The position numbers and the translations under genes were made by a program. A stretch of DNA of 64,000 bases from a virus (Duplodnaviria; Caudoviricetes). Each line of letters starts with the position of its first letter. Position 1 is the first letter of the stretch. The stretch is from positions 1 to 64,000 of the IMG/VR virus record IMGVR_UViG_3300042691_041259; one strand, written 5' to 3'. This document shows, one piece after another, positions 1,858 to 55,700 of this stretch. The notes under the pieces were generated by a model, which worked only from the letters and a program-made list of their open reading frames with translations, had not been told where the DNA came from and made no database searches.

Positions 1858-1916
1858 GTATAAAAATAATACAAAAAACCCAGAGATAAAAATCTCTGGG
1901 CCTAAAGTTATTAACA
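1858..1916 (-). promoter_or_regulatory. Class I bipartite promoter element with internal inverted repeat
   Basis: TGTTAATAACT-N33-GTATTATTTTTATAC; the spacer holds the cccagaga/tctctggg inverted repeat. Confidence 0.75.
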
Positions 1917-1925
1917 ATTTTACTG

Positions 1926-3869
1926 TTAATTGCCTTTTACAAATTCTCTCTTCTCCACTTTTCCATCCGCGGTTACAACTACCAAATATACACCATCAGG
2001 TAAATTGCTGATGTCAATACTTGATTGCGAGCTTGTATAATTGGTTGACAGAACATTGCTGCCTATTGAATTGTACACGCTTACAAATTTTTGTTCTCCA
2101 GCCATTTCATCTATAATGTTGATAAATGAGTTTGCCGGATTAGGAAAGATTGTGACTGCTTTGCTCTCTTCTATTTTTACTATAGGGCGAGTAATTTCTT
2201 CGGGTTTTGTATAAGCATTACGAAGAACCGCGCCTTGATTACTTACAACGCATTCATTCATCTCTTTAATAAAGATGTAACTTGCGCTACAGAAGTTTCC
2301 ACATGCCTGAGAAGTTCTCTTAATACGGTACCATGTAGAAATTAACAAAGTGGTATCAGTAAATGAGTCTCCACTCCCGGTTCTGATTAAGTTCCAGGAT
2401 TGTCCATCCGGAGATTCAAACAACTCCCATATTGAACAGCCCGAAACTGGCTGCTCATTTGTAGAATTAAATTGAAAAGTATAATCTCCTAATGTGGTTA
2501 ATTCATAATCAAAGCCTGGATTGATTACCGCGCTCATTCCTTGAAGACGTGCTATTAGTGGTCTTGGAGAACGTTGGTATCTGTCAGGCCATGCCATATA
2601 GTTTGTAAAAGCTCCACCCAAAAGGATTTCCCATTTGCCGTTTCCGTCTGGGCTATCCTGGATTGCCATGCATCGTCCTGCGCCCTGACCATAACTATTG
2701 ACTAGTACGCCATCCCAAGATACTAAGCCTCCAAGTCCTGCTCCAACATTATTGAGAATGAACTCGGGATTGATTATGCCATCATCAAAAGCAACTACTT
2801 TAGCAACAAATTTATCAACAGGGTTTGTTCCGATTGGTCGTTTAGAGCTTGCGCCCGCAAAGTTTCCGCAAGCTACCAATTGACAGTTGTAGTAACAGAG
2901 ATCTGCTATAGGCCCATTACAACCAGCATTGTATGTAGGATCAATTACCCATTCACCATTTGGTTGCACAGTAAATTTGGCGAGGCTCTTCAGCCCCTGC
3001 GCCGAACCGATAGAGGTGAAGGCCCCGCCAATGTATGCAATGTTTTCACCAGTTGAAATACCTGCGCAATCTTGTTCTGTTACAAATATTGCATCAAATA
3101 TTGTAGCGTTTGTAATTACATTGGTAAGTCCTACAATTGGTTTCAGAGTAAATGTACTCAAATCAACCGCAGCAAGACCTACGTAAGAATTACCGCCTAC
3201 TGTGTAGTTAATGTCGCCACCAATTAACAAGTTATTGGTGCCAGGGATGCGTCGGATAAATCGAATATCACCCACTGGCAGTGCTAGAGTTTGATAAGTT
3301 GCTCCAGTACTTCCGTTGCACGAAACCAATACTTGTGTTCCTGTTACGCCAAACGCGTAGTATAGTGTTCCTGTTGTTTCATCATAAAATCCCGCTTTTG
3401 AGACCTGAATCCAACTTGGGTAGGGGCAAAGAAAGTTTGGATCTATAGATCCATCAGCCTTTACCTTACTTACAAGTCGAATCCCAGCTTCGTTGGCGGT
3501 GCTACGTCCACCTACAAAGAAACATCCATTAGGCTTTCCATCAGGAGTTCTTTCAGGCTCAATATAGCATGTTGAATAATTTTTGCTCCAAGTTGACATA
3601 TGATTTGCCATGTATGTAGCATCTTCGTTTCCCAGCAAGTCAAACTTCCTAATTTTTGGAACGTTATTCATAGCGGAAAACCCAGCATAGACAGAGCCAT
3701 CGACTACTTCTATGCCAGCACAGTTGACATACCCTGCTGCCGAAAAGGGTATGCCGTTTAAATTTGGTTGGAATGTTGTATCCAACGAGGCAGCATACTG
3801 TGCGAACAGCTGGCTGCCGAGTAATAATAGCGCTGATATAAGAAGAGCGCCTTTTCTAAATAATTGCAT
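1926..3869 (-). CDS. Secreted beta-repeat protein with T9SS type A C-terminal sorting domain
   Basis: Signal peptide ending LFA-Q; delta-60-like turns (LDTTFQP, IDPNF, IDPTYN); C-terminus VTIFPNPANSFINI...VSVYNSIG...IDISNLPDGVYLVVV...REFVK is a typical type A CTD. Confidence 0.85.
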   Translation of the reverse strand: MQLFRKGALLISALLLLGSQLFAQYAASLDTTFQPNLNGIPFSAAGYVNCAGIEVVDGSVYAGFSAMNNVPKIRKFDLLGNEDATYMANHMSTWSKNYSTCYIEPERTPDGKPNGCFFVGGRSTANEAGIRLVSKVKADGSIDPNFLCPYPSWIQVSKAGFYDETTGTLYYAFGVTGTQVLVSCNGSTGATYQTLALPVGDIRFIRRIPGTNNLLIGGDINYTVGGNSYVGLAAVDLSTFTLKPIVGLTNVITNATIFDAIFVTEQDCAGISTGENIAYIGGAFTSIGSAQGLKSLAKFTVQPNGEWVIDPTYNAGCNGPIADLCYYNCQLVACGNFAGASSKRPIGTNPVDKFVAKVVAFDDGIINPEFILNNVGAGLGGLVSWDGVLVNSYGQGAGRCMAIQDSPDGNGKWEILLGGAFTNYMAWPDRYQRSPRPLIARLQGMSAVINPGFDYELTTLGDYTFQFNSTNEQPVSGCSIWELFESPDGQSWNLIRTGSGDSFTDTTLLISTWYRIKRTSQACGNFCSASYIFIKEMNECVVSNQGAVLRNAYTKPEEITRPIVKIEESKAVTIFPNPANSFINIIDEMAGEQKFVSVYNSIGSNVLSTNYTSSQSSIDISNLPDGVYLVVVTADGKVEKREFVKGN

Positions 3870-3889
3870 TTTGCTTTCTTTATTTTTGG

Positions 3890-4306
3890 TTATTGCATAT
3901 TTGTAGATATGCTAGTCGTTTGTTGCACTGAGTACATGTACGGAGAATTAGGAAAGGCCATCCAATCAAATAACTCAAAGAAACAGTAGAAGGATTTCGC
4001 CTCCTCAAAGTAAACAATGAAGTAATGAGGATCCATATTTAAGAGCTCTGATTTGTAAACTCCATCAAGTTTTTGATCAAAGAATAGTTCTGCGGATTCT
4101 TTACGTATTACAAAACGCAATGCCTCGTTCCAAACAAGCAAAGAATCTTCATAATTTTCCATTTGATAGTATTGATCCGTTCTAATTAAGTACTCACCAT
4201 CTGGAAATACATTAGTAAGATGCGGAGAAAGATAAAGCGTATACAGCTTTTGTGAATTCATCACGGATGACAATGTCATCAGTGCTAAAAGTAGCAATGT
4301 TCTCAT
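3890..4306 (-). CDS. Small secreted protein (138 aa)
   Basis: Signal peptide MRTLLLLALMTLSSVMNS-Q; sits between two T9SS-cargo genes. Confidence 0.65.
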   Translation of the reverse strand: MRTLLLLALMTLSSVMNSQKLYTLYLSPHLTNVFPDGEYLIRTDQYYQMENYEDSLLVWNEALRFVIRKESAELFFDQKLDGVYKSELLNMDPHYFIVYFEEAKSFYCFFELFDWMAFPNSPYMYSVQQTTSISTNMQ

Positions 4307-4323
4307 TCCTGGTTAAATTATTT

Positions 4324-6225
4324 TCAACGTACCAAACAAACACTTCCACGAAAAACGTGAATGAAATTAGTTTTGTCGGTCACATATATTAAGTACTCAT
4401 AAACATCAATTTGGCATTCAATTCCATCAATTGTACCATCCCATACAGGTGGTTCTTCAGAAGTTCTATCAAATATCTTAATTCCCCAACGGTCAAATAT
4501 CATCATTCTCACTTGTTTGTAGTGTGTGCCCATGCCTGCAAACAATCCATTTATTTGGTCTTCTGGATTTGGTGTAAAAGCATTTGGAACATAAAAACTA
4601 AATACCGGCTTTATTACAACTTCACCTTGAGAATATGCAACGCATCCATTTATATTTGTGGTTTGTAGAGTAATTGTATAGTTTCCCCACTGTCCATAGT
4701 TATGTACCGGGTTGGTTGCAGTACTGTAGTTTCCATCTCCAAAGTTCCATACATAATAGGTCCCTCCAGAAGAAAGATTTGTAAAAGTTACTTCAGGAGA
4801 TAGTTCATCAGTTTCCATTGGATCCAATATAAAACCTGAGGTAGGCGTAGGATACACCGTAATGACAGCCGACGCATTCTGGGTTGTTACACAGCCAGCC
4901 ACAGATGTTACAACTAGAGTTACAACATAAGTTCCTGGCGTTGCGTATGTATGGCTTGGATTCTGTTCCGCTGAATAAGTTCCATCACCAAAGTTCCAAT
5001 ACCATGAATAACCATTGGCTGAGGTGTTGTTAAAGTTTACTACCAGTGGCTGACATCCATTAGTGGCCGAAGGCTGAAATACTGATGTGGGCATTGGATT
5101 GACGCGAACCGTATGCACCACCATGTTTGAACATCCGCTTTCTGTTGTTACTGTCAAAACAACATTGTACAATCCAGGCATTGCATAGCTGTGAATGGGA
5201 TTGATTGCGGTTGATGATTGCCCATCGCCAAAGCTCCAATAATAACTTGCCACTATTGCATTTTGAACAGATACCGTGCTGGTAAATGTTACCGGGCTTC
5301 CATGGCAGACATCAAATGCGGTAAAATCCACATTAATGATTTCAGGAAGAAGCTCGGCAACTATTTCAGCCATGCATCCGCTGTAAGAAATAAGTTGACA
5401 AGTTACGTATTGGTTTGCTTGTGGATCTACAATAATACTTTGACCAGTATCGCCGGTACTCCAATTATAGTAGGCAAATCCAGGAGGTGCTGTTAGCGTA
5501 GCAAAATCATCGTCCACACAGTACTGAACATCAATTGTTAATGGCAAACATGATATACCATCAACGTAAGCATAACCATAGTGGCCTCCGAGAGCGCAAT
5601 CACCGGTCATGAATTCCAGAGTGATTGTTGTTCCTGCATAAAAAGACAGATCCACTCCTACAGTAGTCCAATTTTTGTAAGTGATATTGATAGTGTTTCC
5701 CTGAGAGTCAATTCCTGGGCAGGCCTGGAACCCAGGAAGATTTGACTCCGCAGTTACTCGATATTCTGTACATATCACAGTATCGCCATTTTCTAAAAGT
5801 ATGCGAGTTTGAAAGTTTGGCTGCTCCCAGTCTTCGTGACCAGGGTTTTCAAAAACAACCGCATATTCATAAAGCAATAAAGGGTTATCCGGATCTACAA
5901 AGAGATCAAAACGCAAGCCTTCTGCTTCTGCGCCAACATTAGAATTTCCTAAACGAGCTGAAAAGTTTCCACCGTTAGGTGAAACTACAGGGACTTGGCC
6001 ACAAGTATTAGGATCGGTTCCATTGCCCGACATAATTGTGTGCCTTCCTGGTATGATACCATTGTTTGGTAAGTCTATCGGGCAACACGTCCCGATGGTT
6101 CCTTGCCATCCTTGAAATGTTCCCGTTTCAAAATCGACATTTCCGCATTGAGCGGCTAACGGGTTGGATAGCAATAAGAAAACCGTATGCAAAATAATTG
6201 CAACGCACCACGAATAAATGTTCAT
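4324..6225 (-). CDS. PKD-domain protein with T9SS type B (gliding-motility-associated) C-terminal domain
   Basis: Signal peptide ending LAA-Q; three PKD repeats (WSFGDG, WNFGDG twice, HSY/HTY/HNY); C-terminal FYVPNAFTPN...IFDRWG..IF...WDG...Y.Y.I...G.V.LVR. Confidence 0.9.
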   Translation of the reverse strand: MNIYSWCVAIILHTVFLLLSNPLAAQCGNVDFETGTFQGWQGTIGTCCPIDLPNNGIIPGRHTIMSGNGTDPNTCGQVPVVSPNGGNFSARLGNSNVGAEAEGLRFDLFVDPDNPLLLYEYAVVFENPGHEDWEQPNFQTRILLENGDTVICTEYRVTAESNLPGFQACPGIDSQGNTINITYKNWTTVGVDLSFYAGTTITLEFMTGDCALGGHYGYAYVDGISCLPLTIDVQYCVDDDFATLTAPPGFAYYNWSTGDTGQSIIVDPQANQYVTCQLISYSGCMAEIVAELLPEIINVDFTAFDVCHGSPVTFTSTVSVQNAIVASYYWSFGDGQSSTAINPIHSYAMPGLYNVVLTVTTESGCSNMVVHTVRVNPMPTSVFQPSATNGCQPLVVNFNNTSANGYSWYWNFGDGTYSAEQNPSHTYATPGTYVVTLVVTSVAGCVTTQNASAVITVYPTPTSGFILDPMETDELSPEVTFTNLSSGGTYYVWNFGDGNYSTATNPVHNYGQWGNYTITLQTTNINGCVAYSQGEVVIKPVFSFYVPNAFTPNPEDQINGLFAGMGTHYKQVRMMIFDRWGIKIFDRTSEEPPVWDGTIDGIECQIDVYEYLIYVTDKTNFIHVFRGSVCLVR

Positions 6226-6291
6226 AGTTAAGCAAACTTCTTTTGAATAAGTAATTAAATATGAGTCTTATAGACTCTACAATGTTACAGT

Positions 6292-6300
6292 CTATATATC
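6292..6300 (-). promoter_or_regulatory. Class III (putative late) promoter GATATATAG
   Basis: Same 9-mer as upstream of the tape measure, sheath and neck genes; points toward 6225. Confidence 0.55.
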
Positions 6301-6337
6301 ACAGTGATTCTGGGCCGAGTGTGAATTTTACCCGTAG

Positions 6338-6346
6338 AATATATAG
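6338..6346 (+). promoter_or_regulatory. Class III (putative late) promoter AATATATAG, divergent copy
   Basis: Plus-strand variant upstream of the subtilase ATG at 6453. Confidence 0.5.
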
Positions 6347-6452
6347 AATGCGTAAACAAACCTCCACCCGAGGTTATACTTATATCTTTTTAATGCACTT
6401 TTATCTTGTGCAAAACCTACACTTTTTTCAACCTCAAAAAACAAAAAAACAA

Positions 6453-8717
6453 ATGAAAAAACTACTTGGCTTAGCCATTGCTTTGTTTGTCACATTCAGT
6501 TCCCTGGGACAGGACTATTCAAAGGAAGCAAATTATCACTATCTGCTTACGCCCAAACCGGGAAAGAAAGCAGATGACTTTAAATCCTTTATGGATCAAC
6601 CAGACGTAAAAATGCTCAAGCATCTAGACAAAGTAAATGTCTATATTGTAGAGCATAAAGGCGACCGTAAGAATTTTGAAAAGAGAGCAAAAGACTCTGG
6701 ACATTTTTCTATTGTTGAACGCGATAGCTTATACGAGGTTCAGCACGACTATATTCCAAATGATCCTCAATTTGCAGCGCAGTGGCATTGGAGAAGTTTA
6801 ACTGATAAAGATATTGATGCTGATGAGGCATGGGATCTTTTGCTACCATCAAACCAGCCAACAATAGTTGCTGTGTTGGATGGAGGAATTGAGCTTCTTC
6901 ACGAAGATCTCTTTTCTAACATTGTAACACCTTTTAACGCGGTAACTAATGCATATTCAAACGGTGAATTTGTAAATGCAGAAGACAAACATGGAACTGC
7001 TTGTAGCGGAGTTATTGCTGCAATTTCTAACAATTCAGTAGGCATCTCGGGTATTGGTAATAACAAAGTAAAAGTTATGCCTATCAATATCATGAGTGCT
7101 GTTAATGTAGGAGGATCGTTTTCAACTTCTTCACTGATACAAATAAACGCTGTTAACGCAGCAATTGCGCAAGGCTGTGCTGCTATTTCAATGTCATACG
7201 GAGGCAGCGGATATAGCGCAACTCTTGAGCAAGCATTTCAAACCGCAAAAACTCAAGCTCGTGGGGGAAAAGGTATGGTCATCTGCGCCTCTTCTGGTAA
7301 TGGGTCTTCAGGAACTGCACAACAATATCCTGCATGGTATTCTAACGTTTATGGGATTGGAGCTACTACATCAACAGACTTGAGATCATCTTTTAGCAAC
7401 TTTGGAAACATTGTTGATATCAGTGGTCCTGGTTCATCAATCCTTTCCACTGACAGAAATGGCGCAAACGGTTACAGCACGTCTTCAAACTACGCAAGCG
7501 TAAGCGGTACATCATTCAGTTGCCCATTGGTTGCTGGAGCAGCTGCATTGATTGCGTATCAAAATCCCAGTTTAACAGAAGCTCAAATTTGGCAAATACT
7601 TGCAACCACTGCTGAAAAGGTAGGTGGCTATACATATGCAAGTAATACAGCATGGCCTTTAAGTACGAGATGCCCAGAACTTGGATATGGCAGAGTTAAT
7701 TTAAAGTCTGCCATTCAAGCAGCGGGTGGAAGTACACCTCCACCCCCACCTCCGGTTGCTCATAATATCGTAATTACTAATTGCACTGTAAGCAATAATA
7801 CTCCTAACATTGGATCAACAGTTACTGTGTCAATTACTCAAGGAACCACGGCGCCAACTGCTTTGGCAGTTGCTCCAAAAGTTCAATATCGATTGTCAGT
7901 CGATAACTCATGGTCTAATGACGATATCATTCTAGGATCTGACACTTCTTTTATAGGTGGCGGAGTGACAAACCAAATTGAAACTCTTGCGTTCAATGTA
8001 GGAAATACAGCAGGAACACGTTACATTTTGTCAAGAGTTAATTTTGACGCCGCGGTTACAGAAACTTCATCAACCGACAATACTTGTTCCTTGATGATTA
8101 ACATTACAAATCCAGGAGCGAGCGGAACTGACGCGGAAGCTTTTTGGCTTCTACCATCGGTTACAACATGTAACAATTCAGTTAGTGTAGGCTACCGTTT
8201 TAAGAATGTTGGTTCAACTACAATTACTTCTATGACATGGAGATTGACTTGGGAAATTTGCCCTAACGGCGAACCAGGAATTCCTGCATATTACACTTGC
8301 ACAAACAATCTTAGTAGCTCAATGTTTGGAGGATTCAATATTGCGCCAGGCGCGCTTTCGCCTTCAACATACTATCAAGGTCTTTGCTTAATGAATTGCC
8401 CTGGAGCTACTAGCGGAACCACATATAATGTATTTCAAAATGGTCAAACCCGCTTAAGAAAGGTTGAAATTTTAACTGTCAATGGCGTGGCTGACGCTAA
8501 TGTGGCAAACAATTCTGATCTATTACCTATCACTAAAATTGCTTGTACTACTGCAAGCGTTGATGGAGTAGAACTCACAGAAGAACCGAAGATTAAGATC
8601 TTCACAATTACAGGAAGACCTTTGAGAGCAAAGACTATTGAAGAACTTCCAAGTGGAATGTATATCATTCACTTAATCTATAAAGATCGCACAGAAGTAA
8701 CAAAGTTTGCTAAGTAA
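6453..8717 (+). CDS. Secreted S8 (subtilisin-like) serine protease with a short T9SS-type-A-like C-terminus
   Basis: Start moved from 6261 to MKKLLGLAIALFVTFSSLG-Q. Catalytic triad motifs VAVLDGG, HGTACSG, GTSFSCP. CARDB/Ig-like tail. End IKIFTITGR...ELPSGMYIIHL...KFAK resembles a shortened CTD. The only convincing plus-strand gene in the window. Confidence 0.9.
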   Translation: MKKLLGLAIALFVTFSSLGQDYSKEANYHYLLTPKPGKKADDFKSFMDQPDVKMLKHLDKVNVYIVEHKGDRKNFEKRAKDSGHFSIVERDSLYEVQHDYIPNDPQFAAQWHWRSLTDKDIDADEAWDLLLPSNQPTIVAVLDGGIELLHEDLFSNIVTPFNAVTNAYSNGEFVNAEDKHGTACSGVIAAISNNSVGISGIGNNKVKVMPINIMSAVNVGGSFSTSSLIQINAVNAAIAQGCAAISMSYGGSGYSATLEQAFQTAKTQARGGKGMVICASSGNGSSGTAQQYPAWYSNVYGIGATTSTDLRSSFSNFGNIVDISGPGSSILSTDRNGANGYSTSSNYASVSGTSFSCPLVAGAAALIAYQNPSLTEAQIWQILATTAEKVGGYTYASNTAWPLSTRCPELGYGRVNLKSAIQAAGGSTPPPPPPVAHNIVITNCTVSNNTPNIGSTVTVSITQGTTAPTALAVAPKVQYRLSVDNSWSNDDIILGSDTSFIGGGVTNQIETLAFNVGNTAGTRYILSRVNFDAAVTETSSTDNTCSLMINITNPGASGTDAEAFWLLPSVTTCNNSVSVGYRFKNVGSTTITSMTWRLTWEICPNGEPGIPAYYTCTNNLSSSMFGGFNIAPGALSPSTYYQGLCLMNCPGATSGTTYNVFQNGQTRLRKVEILTVNGVADANVANNSDLLPITKIACTTASVDGVELTEEPKIKIFTITGRPLRAKTIEELPSGMYIIHLIYKDRTEVTKFAK

Positions 8718-8740
8718 GATTTTTATTTAAGAAAAGAAAG

Positions 8741-8762
8741 AGGGGGCGAAAGCCCCTTTTTA
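8741..8762. terminator. Intrinsic terminator between convergent genes
   Basis: ggggc-gaaa-gcccc hairpin followed by a T-tract, with an A-rich run on the other side. Confidence 0.8.
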
Positions 8763-9035
8763 TTGTGTAAACCAGTCGCTTAAAAAACTGTAAAGCCGAA
8801 GAGTGTTTGGCTTTGCTGCTTGATGCTGTTCGGTGTAAACCCAAGAGTTTTCACGGCTGTCCCTGACCGTTATTTCTCCATCAAGGAAAGAACAAAAGTC
8901 TTTAATACTAAAGACTTCCACGAGTTCATTCCACTGATCGTAGATTGCAATCCCGGTATCTTTGCTAACTGCCCACAGAACTGGGCCTTCAAAATTGAGC
9001 AGCGTTATGCTGTCGTTTGACTTTCTGTTGTTCAT
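8760..9035 (-). CDS. Hypothetical protein (91 aa)
   Basis: Starts 3 nt after the thyA stop. Confidence 0.6.
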   Translation of the reverse strand: MNNRKSNDSITLLNFEGPVLWAVSKDTGIAIYDQWNELVEVFSIKDFCSFLDGEITVRDSRENSWVYTEQHQAAKPNTLRLYSFLSDWFTQ

Positions 9036-9038
9036 ATT

Positions 9039-10208
9039 CTAGTTGCTAAGAGGAGCTTTAATGGCGGGATGCGACTGATAGTTTTCAATGATGAAATCAT
9101 CAATAGCAAATCCTCTAAGATTTGTTTTCAGTGGACCAATGCCACATTCACCGGATTCAGTTTGCCAAAATTCTGTATTGACGCTGAGCTTAGGCAATTC
9201 ATAAGGTTCTCTACCAATTTGTTCCTTTGCCTGTTCAATGTGGTTACTGTAGATGTGGACGTCGCCCAAATTTCCAATCAATTCATCAGGTACCATGTTG
9301 ATTTCTTTAGCAATGATTTCAAGTAGCAAACCATAACTCGCAATGTTGAATGGTAAACCTAAAAATGTATCTACTGATCTTTGATTCCACATTAGAGAGA
9401 TCGCTCTGGTTGGAGCATTAAATTTCTCAAGAACTTCAGCAACATTACCTTCCCATCCTAATCTATCAAAAAACTTAGGCATTTGTTGACTTCTATTTTT
9501 GATGACCCAATCTCTACGTTCACCGCTATTCAACTCTCTTGTATAAACTTGAAATCCATAATGACAAGGTGGAAGAACCATTTGGTCTAATTCACCTACA
9601 TTCCAAGCCGAAACCATTAGTCGTCTTGAGTCTGGATTTGTTTTGAGTTCAGAGATTAGGTTTGCGATTTGGTCTATATTATTACCAAAAGGCATATATT
9701 CACCATTAGCGGATATTTTATTTCTCCAACTTCTCCATTGCTTACCATAAATTGGACCTAATTCACCCCGCTTCTTAGCAAACTCAGAATCAATTTTAAT
9801 TCTATCTATAAAAGATTCTTTATCTAAATAGTCGAAACCCTCTAACCCATTTTCTTTGTGAGAAAGTATCACTGATTTTTGATAGTTCTTATACGCATCA
9901 CCATCCCAAATATGACAATTATTATCAACAAGGTATTTGATGTTAGTATCACCTCTCAAGAACCATAACAACTCAGTTACCATTGTTTTCCAAGCCATCT
10001 TTTTAGTTGTAAGCAATGGAAAGCCATCTTGCATATTATGTCTGATTTGTCTTCCAAATACTGATAATGTGCCTGTACCTGTTCGGTCTTTCTTTTCTAC
10101 TCCATTGTCTAGAATATCTTGTAGTAGGTCTTGGTAATCTAAATCTAATTGATTACCTACATGCTCATAAGCACCATTAGGTCCAATTTGAAAATCGTCT
10201 GATATCAT
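9039..10208 (-). CDS. thyA: Thymidylate synthase ThyA with insertions
   Basis: DRTGTGT, FPLLTTKK, ELLWFLRG, LGPIYGKQWR, SRRLMVSAWN, LPPCH, QRSVDTFLGLPFNIASY, GDVHIYSNH. Confidence 0.97.
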   Translation of the reverse strand: MISDDFQIGPNGAYEHVGNQLDLDYQDLLQDILDNGVEKKDRTGTGTLSVFGRQIRHNMQDGFPLLTTKKMAWKTMVTELLWFLRGDTNIKYLVDNNCHIWDGDAYKNYQKSVILSHKENGLEGFDYLDKESFIDRIKIDSEFAKKRGELGPIYGKQWRSWRNKISANGEYMPFGNNIDQIANLISELKTNPDSRRLMVSAWNVGELDQMVLPPCHYGFQVYTRELNSGERRDWVIKNRSQQMPKFFDRLGWEGNVAEVLEKFNAPTRAISLMWNQRSVDTFLGLPFNIASYGLLLEIIAKEINMVPDELIGNLGDVHIYSNHIEQAKEQIGREPYELPKLSVNTEFWQTESGECGIGPLKTNLRGFAIDDFIIENYQSHPAIKAPLSN

Positions 10209-10214
10209 AACTTT

Positions 10215-10475
10215 CTATTGTTTCGGTGTTATTGTTATTGGATTGTTTCTCCAAAATTCTTTACCCTCTGCGCTTTTATTAAAGAACATAAAAAATTCTC
10301 CATACTTGCTTTTTACTTTTTCCATTTTTTCAATGTTGATTTCATCACTATCTCTAAAACTTATAGCAATATTAGCAAATGGATGTAACACGCCATCAAA
10401 ATCTTTGTATGTATATGTTAATAGTGTGACAGGTAGTTCGCACTCACTCTTGATTTGTTGATAAAGTTCATTCAT
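10215..10475 (-). CDS. Hypothetical protein (86 aa) flanked by a 15-bp direct repeat
   Basis: tcataactttctatt occurs at 10205-10219 and 10472-10486. Confidence 0.6.
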   Translation of the reverse strand: MNELYQQIKSECELPVTLLTYTYKDFDGVLHPFANIAISFRDSDEINIEKMEKVKSKYGEFFMFFNKSAEGKEFWRNNPITITPKQ

Positions 10476-10502
10476 AACTTTCTATTATTTCGTTGTTGTA
10501 CG

Positions 10503-12311
10503 TTATCGTATTAGTGTTACTATTCCACTTTGTTCTTTGTTAAATCCATCACGGTCTCTATATTTTACAACCCAGTTGTATGTATCAGTGGGTGGGTAAT
10601 ATCCGGTTCCGGAATCGCCGGTCCAAATAAGATTTGAAGATTCGTATATTGGTGCACCCCAACGATTAAAAATTGTCATTTTTGGATAGTACGCAGATAA
10701 AGCCGTTATCCTAAAAACATCGTTAATTCCATCACCGTTTGGTGTAAAAGAGTTTGGAGCATAAAATCTTTCGCAAGAAGTTGTGCTTATACTTATTTCT
10801 TGTGTGCTGCTTTGACAGCCTATTTCATCAATTCCATAAACACCTATGACATAGGTATTTGTGGTATCATACCATTCTACTGTAAAAACATTTCCATCTG
10901 TACTTTGTAATGAATTGTCAATTGACCAATAATATGAAAAGCTTCTGATATCATCTGCAACATATCTTTGGCTTGGCGAGTCCAAGCAGAGATCCAGCTC
11001 TTGTTTTGTATAACTTATGTTAGGCGCCTGGTATAAAGGCTCTACCGTTACATCAATACTTTTGCTAACATCGCATCCGTAAATGTTGGTGAGATACTCA
11101 GGCCAATAAACTCCTGGCTGGGAGCCTACAAAAACGTTTCCGTTTACATAGTCTCCAGTCCAGATTCCGCCTATAGGAAGAGCGCTTAAATTGGCTGATT
11201 GATTATAGCAAATTCTATAGGAGCTGCTGATTTCAATTTCAGGAACAACCAGTTCCACGTCGCAAGTTTTAAGTGTGCTTTCGCATCCTTGCGGCGTAAT
11301 CTCTTGGACAGTGATTGTGTATGTTCCGGGAATCTCCCCCCAGAGTATTTCACAGTTTGATGTTTGATCCGTGGTAACTAGGCCTCCGCCTGACAGATGC
11401 CAATCGTAAATAGAGAACTGGCTTCCTGTGACTGCGTAACCAACCTCGGATCCTGTACAAGTAGTATCAGGACATGGTATTAGATTGTGAGTAATATCTC
11501 CCATACTAAAGTATCCGCAAGAGCCATCATCACAGCCTGCCAGTATATCAAAATTGCAAGCACCTGGATCTGTGCATCCACCATATGTACAACTGCCATC
11601 ATCGCAAAGAGCGGCTGGGTTAAAGTTGCATGCAATTGGATCTATGCAATCGGGAAAAGAGCAGCTTCCGTTATCACAGTCCGCTGCAGGATTGTAATTA
11701 CAAGCTGTGGCATCGGTGCAGCCCGCGGTAAGGCAGCCAATTGTTCCGCCAAAAATAGGAAACTCCGGATCGAAGCACATTTCAGTTCCCCAACTACCCA
11801 TACTACCATCAGCAAATGGTGTAACGCCAATTGTTAGATCAAGCGGAACACCAACATTTGCCACAGTCAAAGAAGCACAAAAATTCCAAATGCAATCACC
11901 CATCATACAGTAGTCTCCCCAGTCATTTCCGGGATTTCCATCGGTTGGACCGGTAGGGCCTTCAAAGAAATAACCAGGTCCTGCGGTAATTCCTGTTGCA
12001 TCGGAAGTAACGTTGTCTACCCATAGCCAAGTTCCACTAGCATCGCCATCAGCATCGGAAGGCGGACTAACTGGAACCACGGATTCCCAGCCTTCGCCAA
12101 GGGTTAAACCAAATCCTTCAAACCAATTGGATCCTTGAGCATTTCCATTCCACCCATCTTGGGTAACACAAAGTTCCACTACCGTACCTGGTGGGTACGT
12201 GTTATCAGGGTTTGGTGGAGTGTCGAGTACAAAGGACAGATTCCCTGAGCACTGTGCACAACTGACCAGGCAGGAAATTGTGAGTCCTACCAAAAGAATT
12301 AGTTTTTTCAT
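10503..12311 (-). CDS. Cys-rich repeat secreted protein with T9SS type B C-terminal domain
   Basis: Signal peptide ending SCA-Q; three GCTDxxACNYNPxAxCDxGSC repeats; C-terminal FYAPNSFTPNGDGINDVF...IFNRWG..IY...W.G...Y.W...G.VTLIR. Confidence 0.9.
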   Translation of the reverse strand: MKKLILLVGLTISCLVSCAQCSGNLSFVLDTPPNPDNTYPPGTVVELCVTQDGWNGNAQGSNWFEGFGLTLGEGWESVVPVSPPSDADGDASGTWLWVDNVTSDATGITAGPGYFFEGPTGPTDGNPGNDWGDYCMMGDCIWNFCASLTVANVGVPLDLTIGVTPFADGSMGSWGTEMCFDPEFPIFGGTIGCLTAGCTDATACNYNPAADCDNGSCSFPDCIDPIACNFNPAALCDDGSCTYGGCTDPGACNFDILAGCDDGSCGYFSMGDITHNLIPCPDTTCTGSEVGYAVTGSQFSIYDWHLSGGGLVTTDQTSNCEILWGEIPGTYTITVQEITPQGCESTLKTCDVELVVPEIEISSSYRICYNQSANLSALPIGGIWTGDYVNGNVFVGSQPGVYWPEYLTNIYGCDVSKSIDVTVEPLYQAPNISYTKQELDLCLDSPSQRYVADDIRSFSYYWSIDNSLQSTDGNVFTVEWYDTTNTYVIGVYGIDEIGCQSSTQEISISTTSCERFYAPNSFTPNGDGINDVFRITALSAYYPKMTIFNRWGAPIYESSNLIWTGDSGTGYYPPTDTYNWVVKYRDRDGFNKEQSGIVTLIR

Positions 12312-13846: not shown

Positions 13847-14202
13847 TACGCCCTGTTGAAAATGGTTTGACGATATTTTGGAACTGCATTGATGAGAGTG
13901 ATAATCTGTTCGTCCATCCCCATTGGCCAAGTAGCAGGGTTTCCCCATAGCATGCCACTGTCGCGTTGATTAAGCTGATACGCTTTATATGAAGGTCTAT
14001 ACCAAGAGCCGCTTTGTACATGACGGCGAACATAGCCAGACTCATGAAGTGAATAGTAAACTGCTGCAACTGGATCCCATAAACGGATGGATCCGCGCTT
14101 ATGCATTATTTCTGTGGTAACGTCTACCAGGTTCATGGAAATGCAAAGTGATTCAATTGCTTTGCGGTGCTTCTTTTCAATAATAGTGTACTTGTAAGCC
14201 AT
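13846..14202 (-). CDS. Hypothetical protein (118 aa)
   Basis: Follows a class I promoter element. Confidence 0.6.
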   Translation of the reverse strand: MAYKYTIIEKKHRKAIESLCISMNLVDVTTEIMHKRGSIRLWDPVAAVYYSLHESGYVRRHVQSGSWYRPSYKAYQLNQRDSGMLWGNPATWPMGMDEQIITLINAVPKYRQTIFNRA

Positions 14203-16507: not shown

Positions 16508-16566
16508 GGATAAAAATAATACAAAAGTTTTACAAAGTAAAATGTTTTTGCCAAAAGTTATTAACA
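16508..16566 (-). promoter_or_regulatory. Class I bipartite promoter element
   Basis: TGTTAATAACT-N33-GTATTATTTTTATCC. Confidence 0.75.
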
Positions 16567-16776
16567 ATCTTCAAGCACGGTAAATTCTACGTCCATTACG
16601 GACTGGCAAAAAAGGAAATGCGTTGAGTTCTTGAGAACATGATCCGCTCCCAAATGCTCTTTCCAGCCATTAAATGCCTCGGCCACTATGCTTCCGTCTT
16701 TCCTCATAAAATTGTGATGAGGAACCGAGCGAATTACCAAGTAAAATTTGTCGCCGTTCTGATAGAGGGTCTTCAA
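16561..16776 (-). CDS. Hypothetical protein (71 aa, TTG start)
   Basis: Fits the minus-strand gene chain. Confidence 0.5.
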   Translation of the reverse strand: MKTLYQNGDKFYLVIRSVPHHNFMRKDGSIVAEAFNGWKEHLGADHVLKNSTHFLFCQSVMDVEFTVLEDC

Positions 16777-20611: not shown

Positions 20612-20670
20612 GTATAAAAGTAATACAAAGAACCCAGAGAAAAAAATCTCTGGGCCTTTAGTTATTAACA
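20612..20670 (-). promoter_or_regulatory. Class I element with internal inverted repeat
   Basis: TGTTAATAACT-N33-GTATTACTTTTATAC; cccagaga/tctctggg in the spacer, as at 1858. Confidence 0.75.
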
Positions 20671-20674
20671 TTAT

Positions 20675-20974
20675 TTAATTTGGGCAAGGATCCCATGGTG
20701 GGTACCGATCCGTACCAGAATTTTCTACATATTGGATGCTAGTTCCAAACGGACTAACAAGTTCCACAAATGTAGGAGTTCCGGTATAAGTGCAAATTGA
20801 AATTTCTCGTGAAGCGGGTTTCATGTCAAGTAAGATCTGCCGGTTCTCTCCAAGCACTTTTAACTTTATGTCCTCAATTGAGAGGTCATCATTGATTTTT
20901 ACGATAACGCAATTCTTGGCAGTAGCTGTTGCGCTCCAGTCTGTTGATAGAGGTTTAACGTGCATTGCTTTCAT
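20675..20974 (-). CDS. Hypothetical protein (99 aa)
   Basis: Overlaps the 3' end of smpB. Confidence 0.5.
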   Translation of the reverse strand: MKAMHVKPLSTDWSATATAKNCVIVKINDDLSIEDIKLKVLGENRQILLDMKPASREISICTYTGTPTFVELVSPFGTSIQYVENSGTDRYPPWDPCPN

Positions 20975-21395
20975 ATCTTATTTCTCTTTGTGCTTCGCGT
21001 TTCTTAGCGTCTTCCCGTTTATCATAGTCTTTCTTTCCGCGGGCAAGCGCGATGCAGAATTTTATGCGGCCTTTTACTGATTTGATGTGTGTAACTATAA
21101 TGGTCGTACCGCTGACCAAGTTTTTCTGTAAGCTATTAAGCTGGTGCCGATGCAGTAAGAGTTTTCTTAGCCGCTGTGGCTCATGTACATAGTTTTGATC
21201 TACTGGGGTGACTGTCATGGACTTAAGCCAAAGCTCGCCTTTGTCAAAATAGCAATACGCGTCCACCAAAGACACTTTTCCTACTTTAATGCTTTTTACT
21301 TCGCTACCAAGGAGAGCTGCTCCAGCCTCATATTCTTCCAGGAAATGGTAGTCGTGACGAGCTTTTCGATTCTGTATGTTGACTGCTTTTTCCAT
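20955..21395 (-). CDS. smpB: SsrA-binding protein SmpB
   Basis: Start moved to MEKAVNIQNRKARHDY; YEAG..LLGSEVKS, RLRKLLLHR, ALARGKKDYDKR tail. Confidence 0.95.
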   Translation of the reverse strand: MEKAVNIQNRKARHDYHFLEEYEAGAALLGSEVKSIKVGKVSLVDAYCYFDKGELWLKSMTVTPVDQNYVHEPQRLRKLLLHRHQLNSLQKNLVSGTTIIVTHIKSVKGRIKFCIALARGKKDYDKREDAKKREAQREIRYESNAR

Positions 21396-21415
21396 AGACC
21401 GTATTAAAATTGTTA

Positions 21416-21474
21416 GTATAAAAATAATACAAAAAGTCCGCAAAAGAAAATTTTTTGCTAAAAAGTTGTTAACA
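21416..21474 (-). promoter_or_regulatory. Class I element upstream of smpB
   Basis: TGTTAACAACT-N33-GTATTATTTTTATAC. Confidence 0.75.
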
Positions 21475-27660: not shown

Positions 27661-27719
27661 GGATAAAAATAATACAAAAAAACCCAAAAGTAAAATCTTT
27701 TGGCTGAAAGTTATTAACA
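27661..27719 (-). promoter_or_regulatory. Class I element upstream of the ECF sigma gene
   Basis: TGTTAATAACT-N33-GTATTATTTTTATCC. Confidence 0.75.
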
Positions 27720-27722
27720 AAA

Positions 27723-28187
27723 TTATTTTATCTGGTTGTAGTAGTCTTCGTAAAGCTTTTCAATGTTTCCTGACAAAACTCCGTAATTTTCTAACATTGA
27801 AAGATGAGAGGTCTCACGGTATTCTTTTATCCAATAGACCCATCTAAATCCTGCGTTGACTAATACCTTTGAACACACGCTACATGGTGAATGCGTAAGA
27901 ATTACAATATAGTTTTCGGGATCATGTTCCCGAAACTTTGCTATCATATTTACTTCAGCATGTATGAATCCTGAACCGCCAGGTTCAAGTGACTCTTCCT
28001 CTGTTCCGGTTCGAGGATTGACAGAAGCGCCAGGGTAAGAACCATTGTAGCCAAAGGAAGCAATTTTTTGAAATTTCCTATGGACTGCAATGGCTCCTAC
28101 CTTTAATGTGGACGCTGTCGAGAGTTCTGAAATGTGCTCCAATATAGAGACAAAAGTGTCTACTTTTTGTATAATTCTTGGAGTCAT
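27723..28187 (-). CDS. dCMP (deoxycytidylate) deaminase-like protein
   Basis: KVGAI, SFGYNG, HAEVN and THSPCSVC zinc motif. Confidence 0.9.
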   Translation of the reverse strand: MTPRIIQKVDTFVSILEHISELSTASTLKVGAIAVHRKFQKIASFGYNGSYPGASVNPRTGTEEESLEPGGSGFIHAEVNMIAKFREHDPENYIVILTHSPCSVCSKVLVNAGFRWVYWIKEYRETSHLSMLENYGVLSGNIEKLYEDYYNQIK

Positions 28188-51949: not shown

Positions 51950-52008
51950 GTATAAAAATAATACAAAAAGGTGGAAGAAAAAAATCTAGAGGCTGATAGT
52001 TATTAACA
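51950..52008 (-). promoter_or_regulatory. Class I element
   Basis: TGTTAATAACT-N33-GTATTATTTTTATAC. Confidence 0.75.
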
Positions 52009-52012
52009 AAAA

Positions 52013-52705
52013 TTACACCACGCTACCAGTACCCATGTAGGTCCAGCTTGTGCCAGCAAGGTTACCTCTCCAAACTTTACTGGTTGTAGAAGCTGATTGC
52101 GCTACGGATGGGGAATCAAAAGGACCAGCACTATTTTGAAAATTGGTTTTTGCTCGAGTTTCAATCCATTGATACAGGTTGTCCCTGTAAAAGTTTAATA
52201 ACCATGTTGAAGGTAGAGTCTCACCAGACGGGCCGCTGTACGCATAGCCAGAAACTTGAATAATTTTTACAAAACTTTTGTTTCCGCTGCTACCGGTTTG
52301 GTAGTATATGTTATGCACATCTCCATCATCATTGGTCACCGGGCTGCCAATGGCAGAAGGCTTAAAAAATAGATCTCCTGGATTAGAGGTATAGTATTTT
52401 ACTACACCAGTTGCAGATCCTGGTGCTGATGGACCTGCTATAGAAAAATACACACCAGGGTTTGCTGGGTCTGTAAAATATATGAAACTGTTGGTTCCAA
52501 CATACAAATTTGTGGAAGATATATTTTCAATTGAAAAAGAAACTGGAAGCACTATAGCAGTAGTAGTAGAGTTGAATTCAGCGAAAGGAGTATCATAACT
52601 ACCGCTATATGTAGTGTATCCTGCATAAGAAGGCCAACCAAGCGTGGAAGCGCTAAAGTTCCACCCATCAGAGGAATTCATAAAAGATACTGGGTATACT
52701 ATCAT
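52013..52705 (-). CDS. Beta-rich protein downstream of the fibre gene (possible fibre-tip partner)
   Basis: S/T/G/Y-rich; starts 5 nt after the fibre stop codon. Confidence 0.55.
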   Translation of the reverse strand: MIVYPVSFMNSSDGWNFSASTLGWPSYAGYTTYSGSYDTPFAEFNSTTTAIVLPVSFSIENISSTNLYVGTNSFIYFTDPANPGVYFSIAGPSAPGSATGVVKYYTSNPGDLFFKPSAIGSPVTNDDGDVHNIYYQTGSSGNKSFVKIIQVSGYAYSGPSGETLPSTWLLNFYRDNLYQWIETRAKTNFQNSAGPFDSPSVAQSASTTSKVWRGNLAGTSWTYMGTGSVV

Positions 52706-52710
52706 ACAGC

Positions 52711-55700
52711 TTAATAATTTTGAACGTATGATCCATAGTAAGATGTTCCATCGTACACAAAGGTATAGATGTCAGTCTTATTGACAGTAGGTGTCATGGT
52801 AGGTGTTACGCCACCTGCCCAAATCACTGTTCCTGGCCATGTTACTGTGAAAGAAGAACTTGCGTTCTGCTTTATTATGAATATGTAGGTTCCGCCTGCA
52901 TTTGGATTTGTAAACGCAAATGTGGTTGAAGCGTTCAGCGTATATGATTGAACGTTTCCACTATCAAAGTCAACAGTGGTAGAGGCTGTAGTGTTTCCGT
53001 TGGCATCAATTACTACGTATGCTTGTCCTGTGACTGCCGCCTTTCCGGTAAGAGAAAGAACGTTTCCGTCAAATGTAAGGTTAGTTTCTGCATTAAGAAC
53101 TCCGGATGTTCCTGTTGCGGATAAGACTCTGTTATCCGCATCATTATTAACAGTTACCAAACCGCTGGTTCCAGAGCTTCCGCTTGAGCCAGATGTTCCA
53201 CTAGAGCCAGATGTTCCGTCAATTCCACTGGTCCCACTTGAGCCAGAGGTTCCGTCAATTCCACTGGTCCCACTTGAGCCAGATGTGCCTGATCCACTAG
53301 TGCCACTTGTTCCGCTTGAGCCAGAGGTTCCAGAGCTTCCGCTTGTGCCAGAGGTTCCTGAGCTTCCACTAGTTCCATTTATTCCAGAAGTTCCGCTTGA
53401 GCCAGAGGTTCCTGAACTACCGCTTGTTCCACGGGTTCCGCTTGAGCCGCTTGAGCCAGATGTTCCGCTTGAGCCAGATGTTCCGCGTGTTCCGCTAGTA
53501 CCGCTCGAGCCAGATGTTCCACTTGAACCATTTAATCCAGGAGTCCCTGGATCTCCTGGATTTCCAGAAACTCCGCTTGTCCCGCTTGAGCCAGAGGTTC
53601 CAGCCTGTCCCGTAGTTCCCGATGTTCCACTTGAGCCAGAGGTTCCGCTTGAGCCAGAGGTTCCGCTTGAGCCAGAGGTTCCTCGAGTACCGCTAGTTCC
53701 ACTTGATCCCGATGTTCCCGAAGATCCTGTTGTTCCACTAGTTCCTGAGCTTCCACGAGTTCCACTGGTTCCTGAACTTCCACTAGTTCCGGAAAAACCA
53801 GAAGTTCCCGAGCTACCGCTTGAGCCAGAAGTTCCGCTTGAGCCAGAGGTTCCTGAGCTTCCATTAGTACCGGATGTTCCCGAAGATCCTGTTGTTCCAC
53901 TAGTTCCCGAGCTACCGCTGGTCCCGCTTGAGCCACTGGTTCCTGAACTACCGCTTGTTCCGCTAGACCCGCTAGTACCATCTATGCCACTGGTTCCGCT
54001 AGTACCATCTATGCCACTGGTTCCACTAGAGCCGGATGTTCCAGAAGTTCCGCTTGAGCCAGAGGTTCCGCTTGAGCCAGAGGTTCCGCTTGAGCCAGAG
54101 GTTCCTGAACTTCCACTAGTTCCATTTATTCCAGAAGTTCCACTTGAACCAGATGTTCCTGAGCTTCCGCTCGAGCCCGATGTTCCGCTTGAGCCTCTAG
54201 TTCCAGAAGTTCCGCTTGAGCCAGATGTTCCGCTAGAACCAGATGTTCCAGAACTTCCACTAGTTCCATTTATTCCAGAAGTTCCACTTGAACCAGATGT
54301 TCCAGAACTTCCACTAGTTCCATTTATTCCAGAAGTTCCACTTGAACCAGATGTTCCGTCAATTCCGCTGGTTCCGCTGGAACCAGAGGTTCCATGTGTA
54401 CCAATACCGCTAGTGCCGCTTGATCCAGAGGTTCCGCTGCTTCCACTAGAACCTGAGGTTCCCGAGCTTCCGCTGGTTCCACGCGTTCCACTAGTTCCCG
54501 AACTTCCGCTAGTACCGCTACTTCCACTGGAACCGGAGGTTCCGCTTGAACCTCGGGTTCCCGAGGTGCCAGAACTACCACTAGTTCCGTGTGTACCAAT
54601 ACCACTAGTTCCGCTAGAGCCAGATGTTCCGCTAGAGCCAGATGTTCCGCGTGTTCCACTAGATCCAGAAGTACCACTAGTGCCACTTGATCCAGAGCTT
54701 CCGCTGGTTCCGCTTGATCCTCTTGTTCCTGATGTACCGCTGCTTCCGTTGGTTCCGCTTGAGCCAGAAGTACCGCTTGAGCCAGAAGTGCCGTGAGTTC
54801 CAATTCCGCTAGTTCCGCTTGAACCGCTCGAGCCAGAGGTTCCGCTCGTACTGCTACTTCCACTGGTACCGCTAGTTCCATCAATACCTGAAGTACCCGA
54901 TGTACCATCAATACCGCTAGTTCCGCTGGAACCTGAAGTTCCGTGAGTTCCAATTCCGCTTGTACCGCTGCTTCCGCTTGTTCCGCTTAAGCCAGATGTT
55001 CCTGAGCTTCCGCTTGTTCCGCTTGAGCCAGATGTTCCTGAGCTTCCACTAGTTCCACGTGTTCCACTAGTTCCTGAGCTTCCGCTAGTTCCCGAGCTTC
55101 CACGTGTACCGCTAGTTCCCGAACTTCCACTAGTTCCATGAGTACCGATACCACTAGTTCCACTAGATCCAGATGTTCCTCTAGTTCCGGAAGATCCACT
55201 AGTTCCTGAGCTTCCACTAGTTCCACGTGTTCCACTAGTTCCTGAGCTTCCGCTAGTTCCCGAGCTTCCACGTGTACCGCTAGTTCCCGAGCTCCCACTA
55301 GTTCCGCTTGAACCAGCTGTTCCGCTTGAGCCAGAAGTTCCGGAGCTTCCACTAGTACCGGATGAACCTGAAGTTCCGCTTGATCCAGACGTTCCTGAGC
55401 TTCCGCTGGTTCCATCAATACCGCTGGTTCCTGAAGACCCATCAATACCGGATGTTCCCGAGCTTCCGCTGGTTCCTTCGGTTCCGCTAGTTCCCGAGGA
55501 ACCGCTTGTTCCATCAGTTCCGCTTGTTCCATCAGTTCCCGAGGAACCGCTTGTTCCATCAGTTCCGCTTGTTCCATCAGTTCCACTAGTACCGTTAATT
55601 CCTGAGGTTCCGGAAGTTCCGTCAATTCCTGAGGTTCCACTGGTTCCGTCAATTCCTGATGTTCCGCTTGAACCGGAGGTTCCTTCAGTACCACTAGTTC

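Follow-up and report, generated by a model that had tools for sequence, protein, structure and literature searches.

Probable host-secretion cargo of a jumbo myophage: a conserved cluster of five genes for predicted exported proteins

The stretch of DNA analyzed here (the window, 64,000 nt) is the first 64 kb of a 202,505-bp viral contig (G000; IMG/VR record IMGVR_UViG_3300042691_041259). Close to its start lie five genes whose products begin with an apparent signal peptide, four of which end in a domain resembling the C-terminal sorting signals of type IX secretion (the T9SS). An earlier note on this DNA had described them as T9SS cargo genes of a jumbo phage, and the open reading frames (ORFs) were found where it had placed them:

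1926-3869, minus strand: P0001, 647 aa; signal peptide, probable beta-propeller of about 540 aa, type A sorting domain
3890-4306, minus strand: P0006, 138 aa; predicted exported protein (cleavage after MNS, before Gln), between P0002 and P0001 in one transcription unit
4324-6225, minus strand: P0002, 633 aa; signal peptide, jelly-roll head, immunoglobulin (Ig)-like domain, three PKD domains, type B sorting domain
6453-8717, plus strand: S8 subtilase of 754 aa, starting with ATG 6453 (PF00082, 127 bits); the only plus-strand gene of the cluster
10503-12311, minus strand: P0004, 602 aa; signal peptide, head, Cys-rich linker, three Ig-like domains, type B sorting domain

In our view, a jumbo myophage probably carries the block at 1.9-12.3 kb as an accessory module of its own, real and conserved, and the five Sec-exported proteins would include cargo for the T9SS of the host. 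The module would comprise an adhesin-like protein with a head resembling carbohydrate-binding modules (CBMs) and PKD domains (type B), an adhesin-like protein of head plus Ig domains (type B), a beta-propeller (type A), an S8 protease (type A-like) and a small secreted protein lacking a sorting domain. Two contigs recur below for comparison: L034, an independent 39,392-bp contig from JGI sample 3300032092, and G001, a 322,372-bp phage contig rated 100% complete.

Predicted exported proteins and their C-terminal domains

The translations agree with the description of five exported proteins in the earlier note, each with a signal peptide followed directly by Gln. All five N-termini consist of a positive charge, a hydrophobic core and a small residue before the Gln, with cleavage predicted after LFA (P0001), MNS (P0006), LAA (P0002), SLG (subtilase) and SCA (P0004). 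A crude hydrophobicity screen agrees with these signal peptides. In family alignments Gln20 is invariant among 36 P0004 homologues and 14 subtilase homologues.

At the C-termini, we ran the profile check with TIGR04183 and TIGR04131 that had been suggested for these tails, together with the corresponding Pfam models (curated cut-offs: TIGR04183, 23 bits; PF18962, 27 bits; TIGR04131, 35 bits; PF13585, 27 bits). Three proteins pass. The type A domain of P0001 covers residues 574-645 of 647 (DNA 1935-2150; TIGR04183, 49.5 bits; PF18962, 50.9 bits). The type B domain of P0002 covers residues 546-631 (DNA 4330-4590; TIGR04131, 36.3 bits; PF13585, 33.5 bits; six-frame scan, 40.9 bits) and that of P0004 residues 518-602 (DNA 10506-10760; TIGR04131, 39.0 bits; PF13585, 54.6 bits; six-frame scan, 44.3 bits). 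The tail of the subtilase (DNA 8574-8714), previously called degenerate and type-A-like, is fairly described by these words; its TIGR04183 score of 18.7 bits in the full-length scan is below the cut-off, and the last 100 aa alone score 25.4 bits; the match takes in model positions 17-71 only. Six-frame scans of the whole 202.5-kb contig yielded no further sorting domains.

For P0002, the predicted structure of residues 26-300 [AlphaFold2] was of high confidence (pLDDT 93) and consists of a jelly-roll and an Ig-like domain. The nearest solved folds of the head are a porphyran-binding CBM (Z 12.5), CBM61 (Z 11.6) and CBM16; it also matches MAM domains and a gingipain adhesin domain. The PKD region follows with a PKD_4 match of 148 bits. 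The head recurs in 5292 protein clusters, where its place is almost always immediately behind the signal peptide; PKD repeats and a CHU_C tail come after it in those relatives that were checked. In G001 (62841-65173) and in another phage (L092, 17526-19850), a P0002-like head/PKD protein of 381-385 aa is tailless and the type B domain sits on a nearby ORF of 187-192 aa, an arrangement that looks like a split form of the fused gene in the window.

The predicted structure of P0004 [AlphaFold2, pLDDT 79] shows a beta-sandwich head (about residues 24-190), a Cys-rich linker of low confidence (about 200-266), three Ig-like domains and the tail; among solved structures it comes closest to the Ig-domain arrays of GhpA, a grappling-hook protein related to the T9SS. 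The signal peptide also carries a lipobox-like LVSC. The best homologues listed, at least 120 in number, are 45-100% identical to P0004 and mostly full length, and many positions of the tail are invariant in the family alignment. The head shares 34-45% identity with the N-terminal part of a bacterial type B protein of about 1255 aa, which also ends in CHU_C; the head itself was found in 66 of 132 genomes of one Bacteroidota order. Judging from this resemblance, P0004 is a shortened relative of a conserved host-type surface protein: both have the head directly after the signal peptide, Ig/PKD repeats and a CHU_C tail. The bacterial protein adjoins a phosphofructokinase gene in the two genomes inspected, whereas P0004 has half its length, a Cys-rich linker and a tight family of its own, found so far in phage-like contexts.

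The subtilase is laid out as signal peptide, N-terminal pro-region, catalytic domain, Pro-rich linker, two beta-rich domains and the diverged, short type A-like tail. Asp143, His180, Asn283 (oxyanion) and Ser354 are invariant in 14 homologues, as expected for an S8 peptidase. The start at ATG 6453 corresponds to the Met used in the L034 gene call and yields a typical signal peptide. Ten of the 14 full-length family members match TIGR04183 at E<=0.05. Among solved structures, a profile of the tail best matches the chain called Endonuclease I of 8GLK (75 residues, E 0.002), an entry that we take to stem from a T9SS translocon study. We therefore treat the tail as a diverged and shortened type A-like domain of borderline membership. 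In a related 162-kb contig (L090), two tandem S8 peptidase genes (3801-5984 and 6386-8509) adjoin a P0004 homologue; their products have no signal peptide and begin M-x-S-x-x-N-Y-L-x-F-L-N.

The look-alikes of P0001 in the ESM Atlas are DUF5122/delta-60 propellers (TM 0.62/0.69), a lead that points to a probable beta-propeller fold. Its family is nearly an orphan one, with three protein clusters in total in a large protein collection, two besides its own. No relatives were found in IMG/VR by pattern scan, and the tail had no match in cultured or GenBank phages. A relative of about 95% identity is represented in two RNA-library runs by contigs that span the flanks and P0002, the subtilase, ThyA and P0004, and that leave the body of P0001 (2401-3600) uncovered; the contigs break at 1861-1924, and one run joins 14237 to about 1904. 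P0001 may thus be a variable gene. P0006 had neither a sorting domain nor a family match in the profile scans.

Phage context, conservation and recurrence

The window encodes a tail sheath protein, large terminase, portal and clamp loader, and the contig is 66% complete by CheckV. The label "jumbo" given to this phage is justified by these hallmark genes and by a contig that already exceeds 200 kb; we estimate the genome of this jumbo myophage at about 300 kb. The large terminase is nearest to those of the uncultured phages LR745206.1 and LR756502.1 (635-642 kb, about 40% identity), followed by phage PAU and the Lak phages. By terminase similarity, the phage is thus closest to the "Mahaphage" huge phages, the clade that holds every genome >634 kb in the work of Al-Shayeb et al. 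(2020) and for which Bacteroidetes hosts were predicted (PMC7162821). At the nucleotide level, thyA is about 80% identical to its counterparts in the "immuto" group of Flavobacterium phages. Because of the sorting domains, this thyA likeness and bacterial homologues in metagenome-assembled genomes labeled Flavobacteriales, we infer that the host belongs to the Bacteroidota and would possess a T9SS.

Because the block is confined to the first 12.3 kb of a linear contig and holds every sorting-domain gene of its 202 kb, a chimera, in which a piece of host chromosome was joined to the end of a phage contig, had to be excluded. L034, which comes from another sample, is collinear with window positions 372-22446 and has the same order of P0004, ThyA, 91-aa ORF, subtilase, P0002, P0006 and P0001, with the same phage genes flanking the block on both sides; it continues past the first base of the window. 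The GC content is flat over the region (0.38-0.43), with no compositional break, conserved phage regulatory motifs lie inside the block, and homologues are internal in the 322-kb G001. In two DNA runs, cluster and flanks alike are covered to a similarly low depth by fragments 100% identical to the window, which is weak evidence given how fragmentary the contigs are. We reject the chimera, to which we assign practically no probability, in agreement with the opinion of the earlier note that the block does not have the look of a host-chromosome chimera.

The cargo proteins are 74-80% identical to those of L034, with dN/dS values of 0.05-0.14 that lie in the range of the flanking AAA and UvdE genes and are approximate, as dS between the two contigs is saturated. 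P0006 is among them (74% identity, dN/dS 0.10). The type B tails are 82-89% identical, compared to 77-79% for the remainder of these proteins. On these values, the cargo genes are under purifying selection.

G001 has 21 ORFs in common with our contig, and its terminase and sheath are 29% identical. It encodes homologues of P0004 (62%), ThyA (62%), the P0002 head (42%) and the subtilase (44%), the last about 60 kb from the others. Sorting domains also occur in published, curated huge-phage genomes: LR745206.1 and LR756502.1 each contain three type B ORFs over the cut-off, as well as two and one type A ORFs, respectively. The word "secretion" is absent from the main text of the paper describing the two huge-phage genomes (PMC7162821).

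Of five P0004-homologue contexts inspected, four are plainly phage-like, with genes for T4-type RNA ligase, Tad6, ThyA, holin and NAMPT and many small ORFs. The fifth, L031 (ENA k141_2239007, 1-20310), is ambiguous. There, a 63%-identical P0004 homologue lies beside TonB-dependent receptor, SLT, SPOR and HYR_4C genes and a gene for a beta-helix protein with a type A sorting domain; five of its ORFs have homologues in G001, and it could belong to a huge phage or a bacterium. Only partial matches to P0004 were obtained in GTDB representative genomes, in a scan that relied on exact short peptide patterns and so leaves full-length absence unproven, and only partial domain matches in cultured or GenBank phages.

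These data bear on the possibility that the genes are recent passengers of host origin, carried by the phage and not used by it, which we regard as unlikely. The domain families are overwhelmingly bacterial, as seen from the 5292 clusters with the P0002 head, often in the order head-PKD-CHU_C, and from the frequency of the P0004 head in one bacterial order, and P0001 appears to be missing or diverged in the close relatives seen in the two RNA-library runs. Recent, idle passengers are hard to reconcile with the low dN/dS between phages at saturated synonymous divergence, the gene order kept in L034, the homologues in a phage with so distant a terminase, and the P0004 architecture of about 600 aa, which was found only in phage-like contexts and not at full length in the GTDB representatives scanned.

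Neighboring genes and transcription units

As the earlier note had observed, the cargo genes are interleaved with thyA and small ORFs. These and the regulatory features of the region are:

1450-1510, 1860-1920, 16510-16570, 20615-20675, 27665-27725 and 51955-52015, minus strand: window copies of the composite element TTGTTAATAACT-hairpin-TTTTGTATTATTTTT
1876-1903, minus strand: terminator-like hairpin with a 12-bp stem followed by a T run, just downstream of P0001
6292-6300, minus strand: GATATATAG, a promoter-like motif 67 nt upstream of where P0002 starts
6338-6346, plus strand: degenerate motif copy AATATATAG, facing the subtilase gene
8741-8757, no strand assigned: GC-rich hairpin between the convergent subtilase gene and ThyA operon, terminator-like on the minus strand
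8760-9035, minus strand: 91-aa ORF with no assigned function, kept in L034 (78%)
9039-10208, minus strand: ThyA, 389 aa (NF002496, 343 bits; PF00303, 331 bits)
10215-10475, minus strand: 86-aa ORF without signal peptide, absent from the relative L034

The motif GATATATAG occurs seven times in the window (6292, 17570, 25637, 36798, 42747, 47380 and 63023), always on the minus strand, against 0.34 copies expected. The contig holds 20 copies, 18 of them on the minus (coding) strand. Copies lie 25-70 nt upstream of gene starts, including that of the tail sheath gene (42747), and also precede several genes beyond the window whose products start MKHV.../MKSF.... We propose that GATATATAG is probably a phage promoter, and perhaps a late one. 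Only the exact motif is significant: the degenerate pattern DATAWATAG was found 10 times versus 3.7 expected, which is not significant. A sigma-70 promoter scan gave fewer matches than in shuffled sequence and was not useful for this type of host.

The hairpin at 1876-1903 is part of the conserved element TTGTTAATAACT-hairpin-TTTTGTATTATTTTT of about 60 nt, of which the contig has eight copies, always intergenic and on the coding strand; it looks like a terminator fused to a second type of promoter. Because GATATATAG lies upstream of P0002 and a strong hairpin follows P0001, P0002-P0006-P0001 look like one transcription unit. This unit shares its motif with a structural gene and is possibly a late one. 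A partial copy of the composite element precedes the gene at 14202, the head of the unit with P0004 and ThyA, and these two genes appear to belong to a longer minus-strand unit that would end at the hairpin at 8741-8757.

The use of the same motif upstream of P0002 and of the tail sheath gene would also suit virion proteins. The main rival explanation is that the cargo proteins are virion components (decoration or fibre-like adhesins), with C-terminal beta-sandwiches that are structural or receptor-binding. The PKD region of P0002 gives a weak match to a PHROG "tail protein", P0004 is an array of Ig-like domains, and Ig-like and PKD domains are frequent on virions. However, all five proteins have cleavable-looking Sec signals, with the +1 Gln invariant in the families, and virions of tailed phages assemble in the cytoplasm. 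Further, what P0002 and P0004 resemble in bacteria are ordinary surface proteins of T9SS type B, and a distance of about 25 kb separates the sheath/terminase/portal block from the cluster, which sits among ThyA and small ORFs. Overall, we give a virion role a low probability.

The neighborhood of P0004 varies among relatives. In G001 (L010, 11815-12069) and in the related 162-kb contig (L090, 11809-12066), an ORF of 84-85 aa with a lipoprotein-like product overlaps the stop of the P0004 homologue. The same position is taken by the unrelated 86-aa ORF in the window, and L034 has no ORF there.

Proposed export route and described systems

Bacterial type B genes often adjoin a porP/sprF-like gene. 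In Flavobacterium johnsoniae, type B cargo such as SprB, which is paired with SprF, carries TIGR04131/CHU_C on long Ig-repeat surface proteins. The phage type B proteins likewise combine a C-terminal TIGR04131/CHU_C domain with Ig-like repeats and differ in the missing partner: TIGR03519 (PorP/SprF) had no match in our contig, G001, LR745206.1 or LR756502.1, whereas it had 12 in the positive control, a genome of the candidate host type (G028) that carries the protein of about 1255 aa. Because the phage records searched encode no PorP/SprF, type B cargo would need that of the host.

In the mechanism that we propose, the cargo proteins would pass the inner membrane via Sec during infection and the signal peptide would be cleaved before the Gln. 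The T9SS translocon of the host would then recognize the C-terminal domains, type B proteins docking on PorP/SprF-type outer-membrane partners of the host and type A proteins being either set free or anchored at the cell surface. As a result, the infected cell would bear binding proteins and a protease of phage origin on its surface and in its surroundings. Our best guess for the benefit is changed adhesion or receptor occupancy, combined with proteolysis. Since the genes are intact and owned by the phage, their products carry both export signals, and the genes are under purifying selection and recur in large phages, export through the host T9SS is the most economical reading. The suggestion of the earlier note that the phage uses the host T9SS is thereby strengthened in its premises, namely ownership, signals, selection and recurrence; the export step itself keeps the status of an interpretation.

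Alternatively, export could be by Sec only, with the proteins kept in the periplasm or in the inner or outer membrane and the C-terminal domains being relics that the T9SS ignores. Of the four tails, that of P0002 is close to its threshold (36.3 against 35 bits on TIGR04131) and that of the subtilase is below its own, a phage PorP/SprF partner was not found in the records searched, and P0004 has the lipobox-like LVSC. Relics are not expected to be the best-conserved parts of the type B proteins, as these tails are, nor to keep as many invariant positions as the P0004 tail, and the Pfam models are clearly passed. We consider Sec-only export very unlikely.

Several points weigh against T9SS cargo as the role of the module. 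Its signal peptides were called by eye from the translations with a crude hydrophobicity screen, not with a trained predictor, and the dN/dS values are approximate. The subtilase tail stays below the cut-off in the full-length scan (18.7 vs 23), and its homologue in G001 had no TIGR04183 match. As mentioned above, the P0002-P0006-P0001 unit lies behind the same motif as the tail sheath gene, and the Ig-like and PKD domains are common on virions. The RNA-library contigs cover several cargo genes and the flanks equally and may derive from DNA. Finally, the host is placed tentatively and at the level of the phylum, and secretion, like the timing of expression, is a prediction from sequence features.

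A bolder extension, which we hold to be doubtful, is that large phages of Bacteroidota have a common toolkit for hijacking the host surface. Its core would be the compact type B proteins of the phage-specific P0004 family, which copy head and tail of a conserved host surface adhesin, bring no PorP/SprF partner and could occupy host docking sites, so that the host protein is replaced or displaced. With glycan-binding adhesins and a protease routed through the T9SS, they would re-program adhesion of the infected cell or block superinfection. The Llp lipoprotein of phage T5 is a phage-encoded envelope protein that masks or alters the receptor. The likeness, a phage product in the host envelope that changes the surface, concerns a possible logic only: there is no relation in sequence or structure, the route here would be Sec plus T9SS, and exclusion is one of several possibilities.

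The T9SS is the main surface-building route of Bacteroidota and serves virulence proteases, enzymes that degrade polymers and the adhesins of gliding. Were it in regular use by phages for their own cargo, infected and uninfected cells of lakes, sediments and guts would not be alike in what they adhere to and digest, and the link between phage resistance and T9SS/gliding mutations would gain a second side. The locus is a compact test set of four tails of two types without a phage partner gene, and bears on whether foreign type B tails can use host PorP/SprF, and on which of these proteins they would use.

The earlier note knew of no described phage system of this kind, a statement that has to be withdrawn, as two reports, both from annotation, exist of phage-borne T9SS cargo. 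In "Cryophage", Bellas et al. (2020, Nat Commun) described three T9SS type A cargo genes and proposed that the phage hijacks the host system (PMC7468147). The cargos, an endoglucanase, a GH39 protein and a PA14 protein, were presented as hypervariable island genes with possible roles in competition or superinfection (PMC7468147). Both cases concern phage-encoded proteins with T9SS sorting domains, whose export is predicted from sequence. In contrast to the three type A genes of Cryophage, two of the four tails in the window are of type B and one belongs to a protease, and the genes form a cluster, evolve under purifying selection and turn up in jumbo as well as huge phages. De Jonge et al. (2019, Viruses) found ORFs with T9SS sorting domains beside BACON-repeat ORFs in crAssphage-related gut phages (PMC6949934). 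They are located close to head genes and a role as tail fibres was considered, with no type B domain, protease or cluster described (PMC6949934). Those phages, too, are Bacteroidota phages with ORFs annotated as T9SS sorting domains, and differ from the present one in being gut phages with smaller genomes. New in the present case would be the partnerless type B tails, the short phage relative of a host surface protein, the T9SS-type protease family, the clustering and the presence across jumbo and huge phages.

Elsewhere on the contig, two more predicted exported proteins are encoded beyond the window (G000:C1:75897-76535 and 196156-197187), with Gln after the predicted cleavage site and no sorting-domain match; one has HYR_4C and homologues in G001 and L031. 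The window also encodes a collagen-repeat protein of 1466 aa (52711-57111, minus strand; PF01391, 514 bits), where the local GC content rises up to 0.47-0.53. The ORF at 20955-21443 (minus strand) is 91% identical to an L034 gene with a precomputed SmpB match (PF01668) and encodes a homologue of the tmRNA-binding protein, with a relative in G001 of 37-39% identity.

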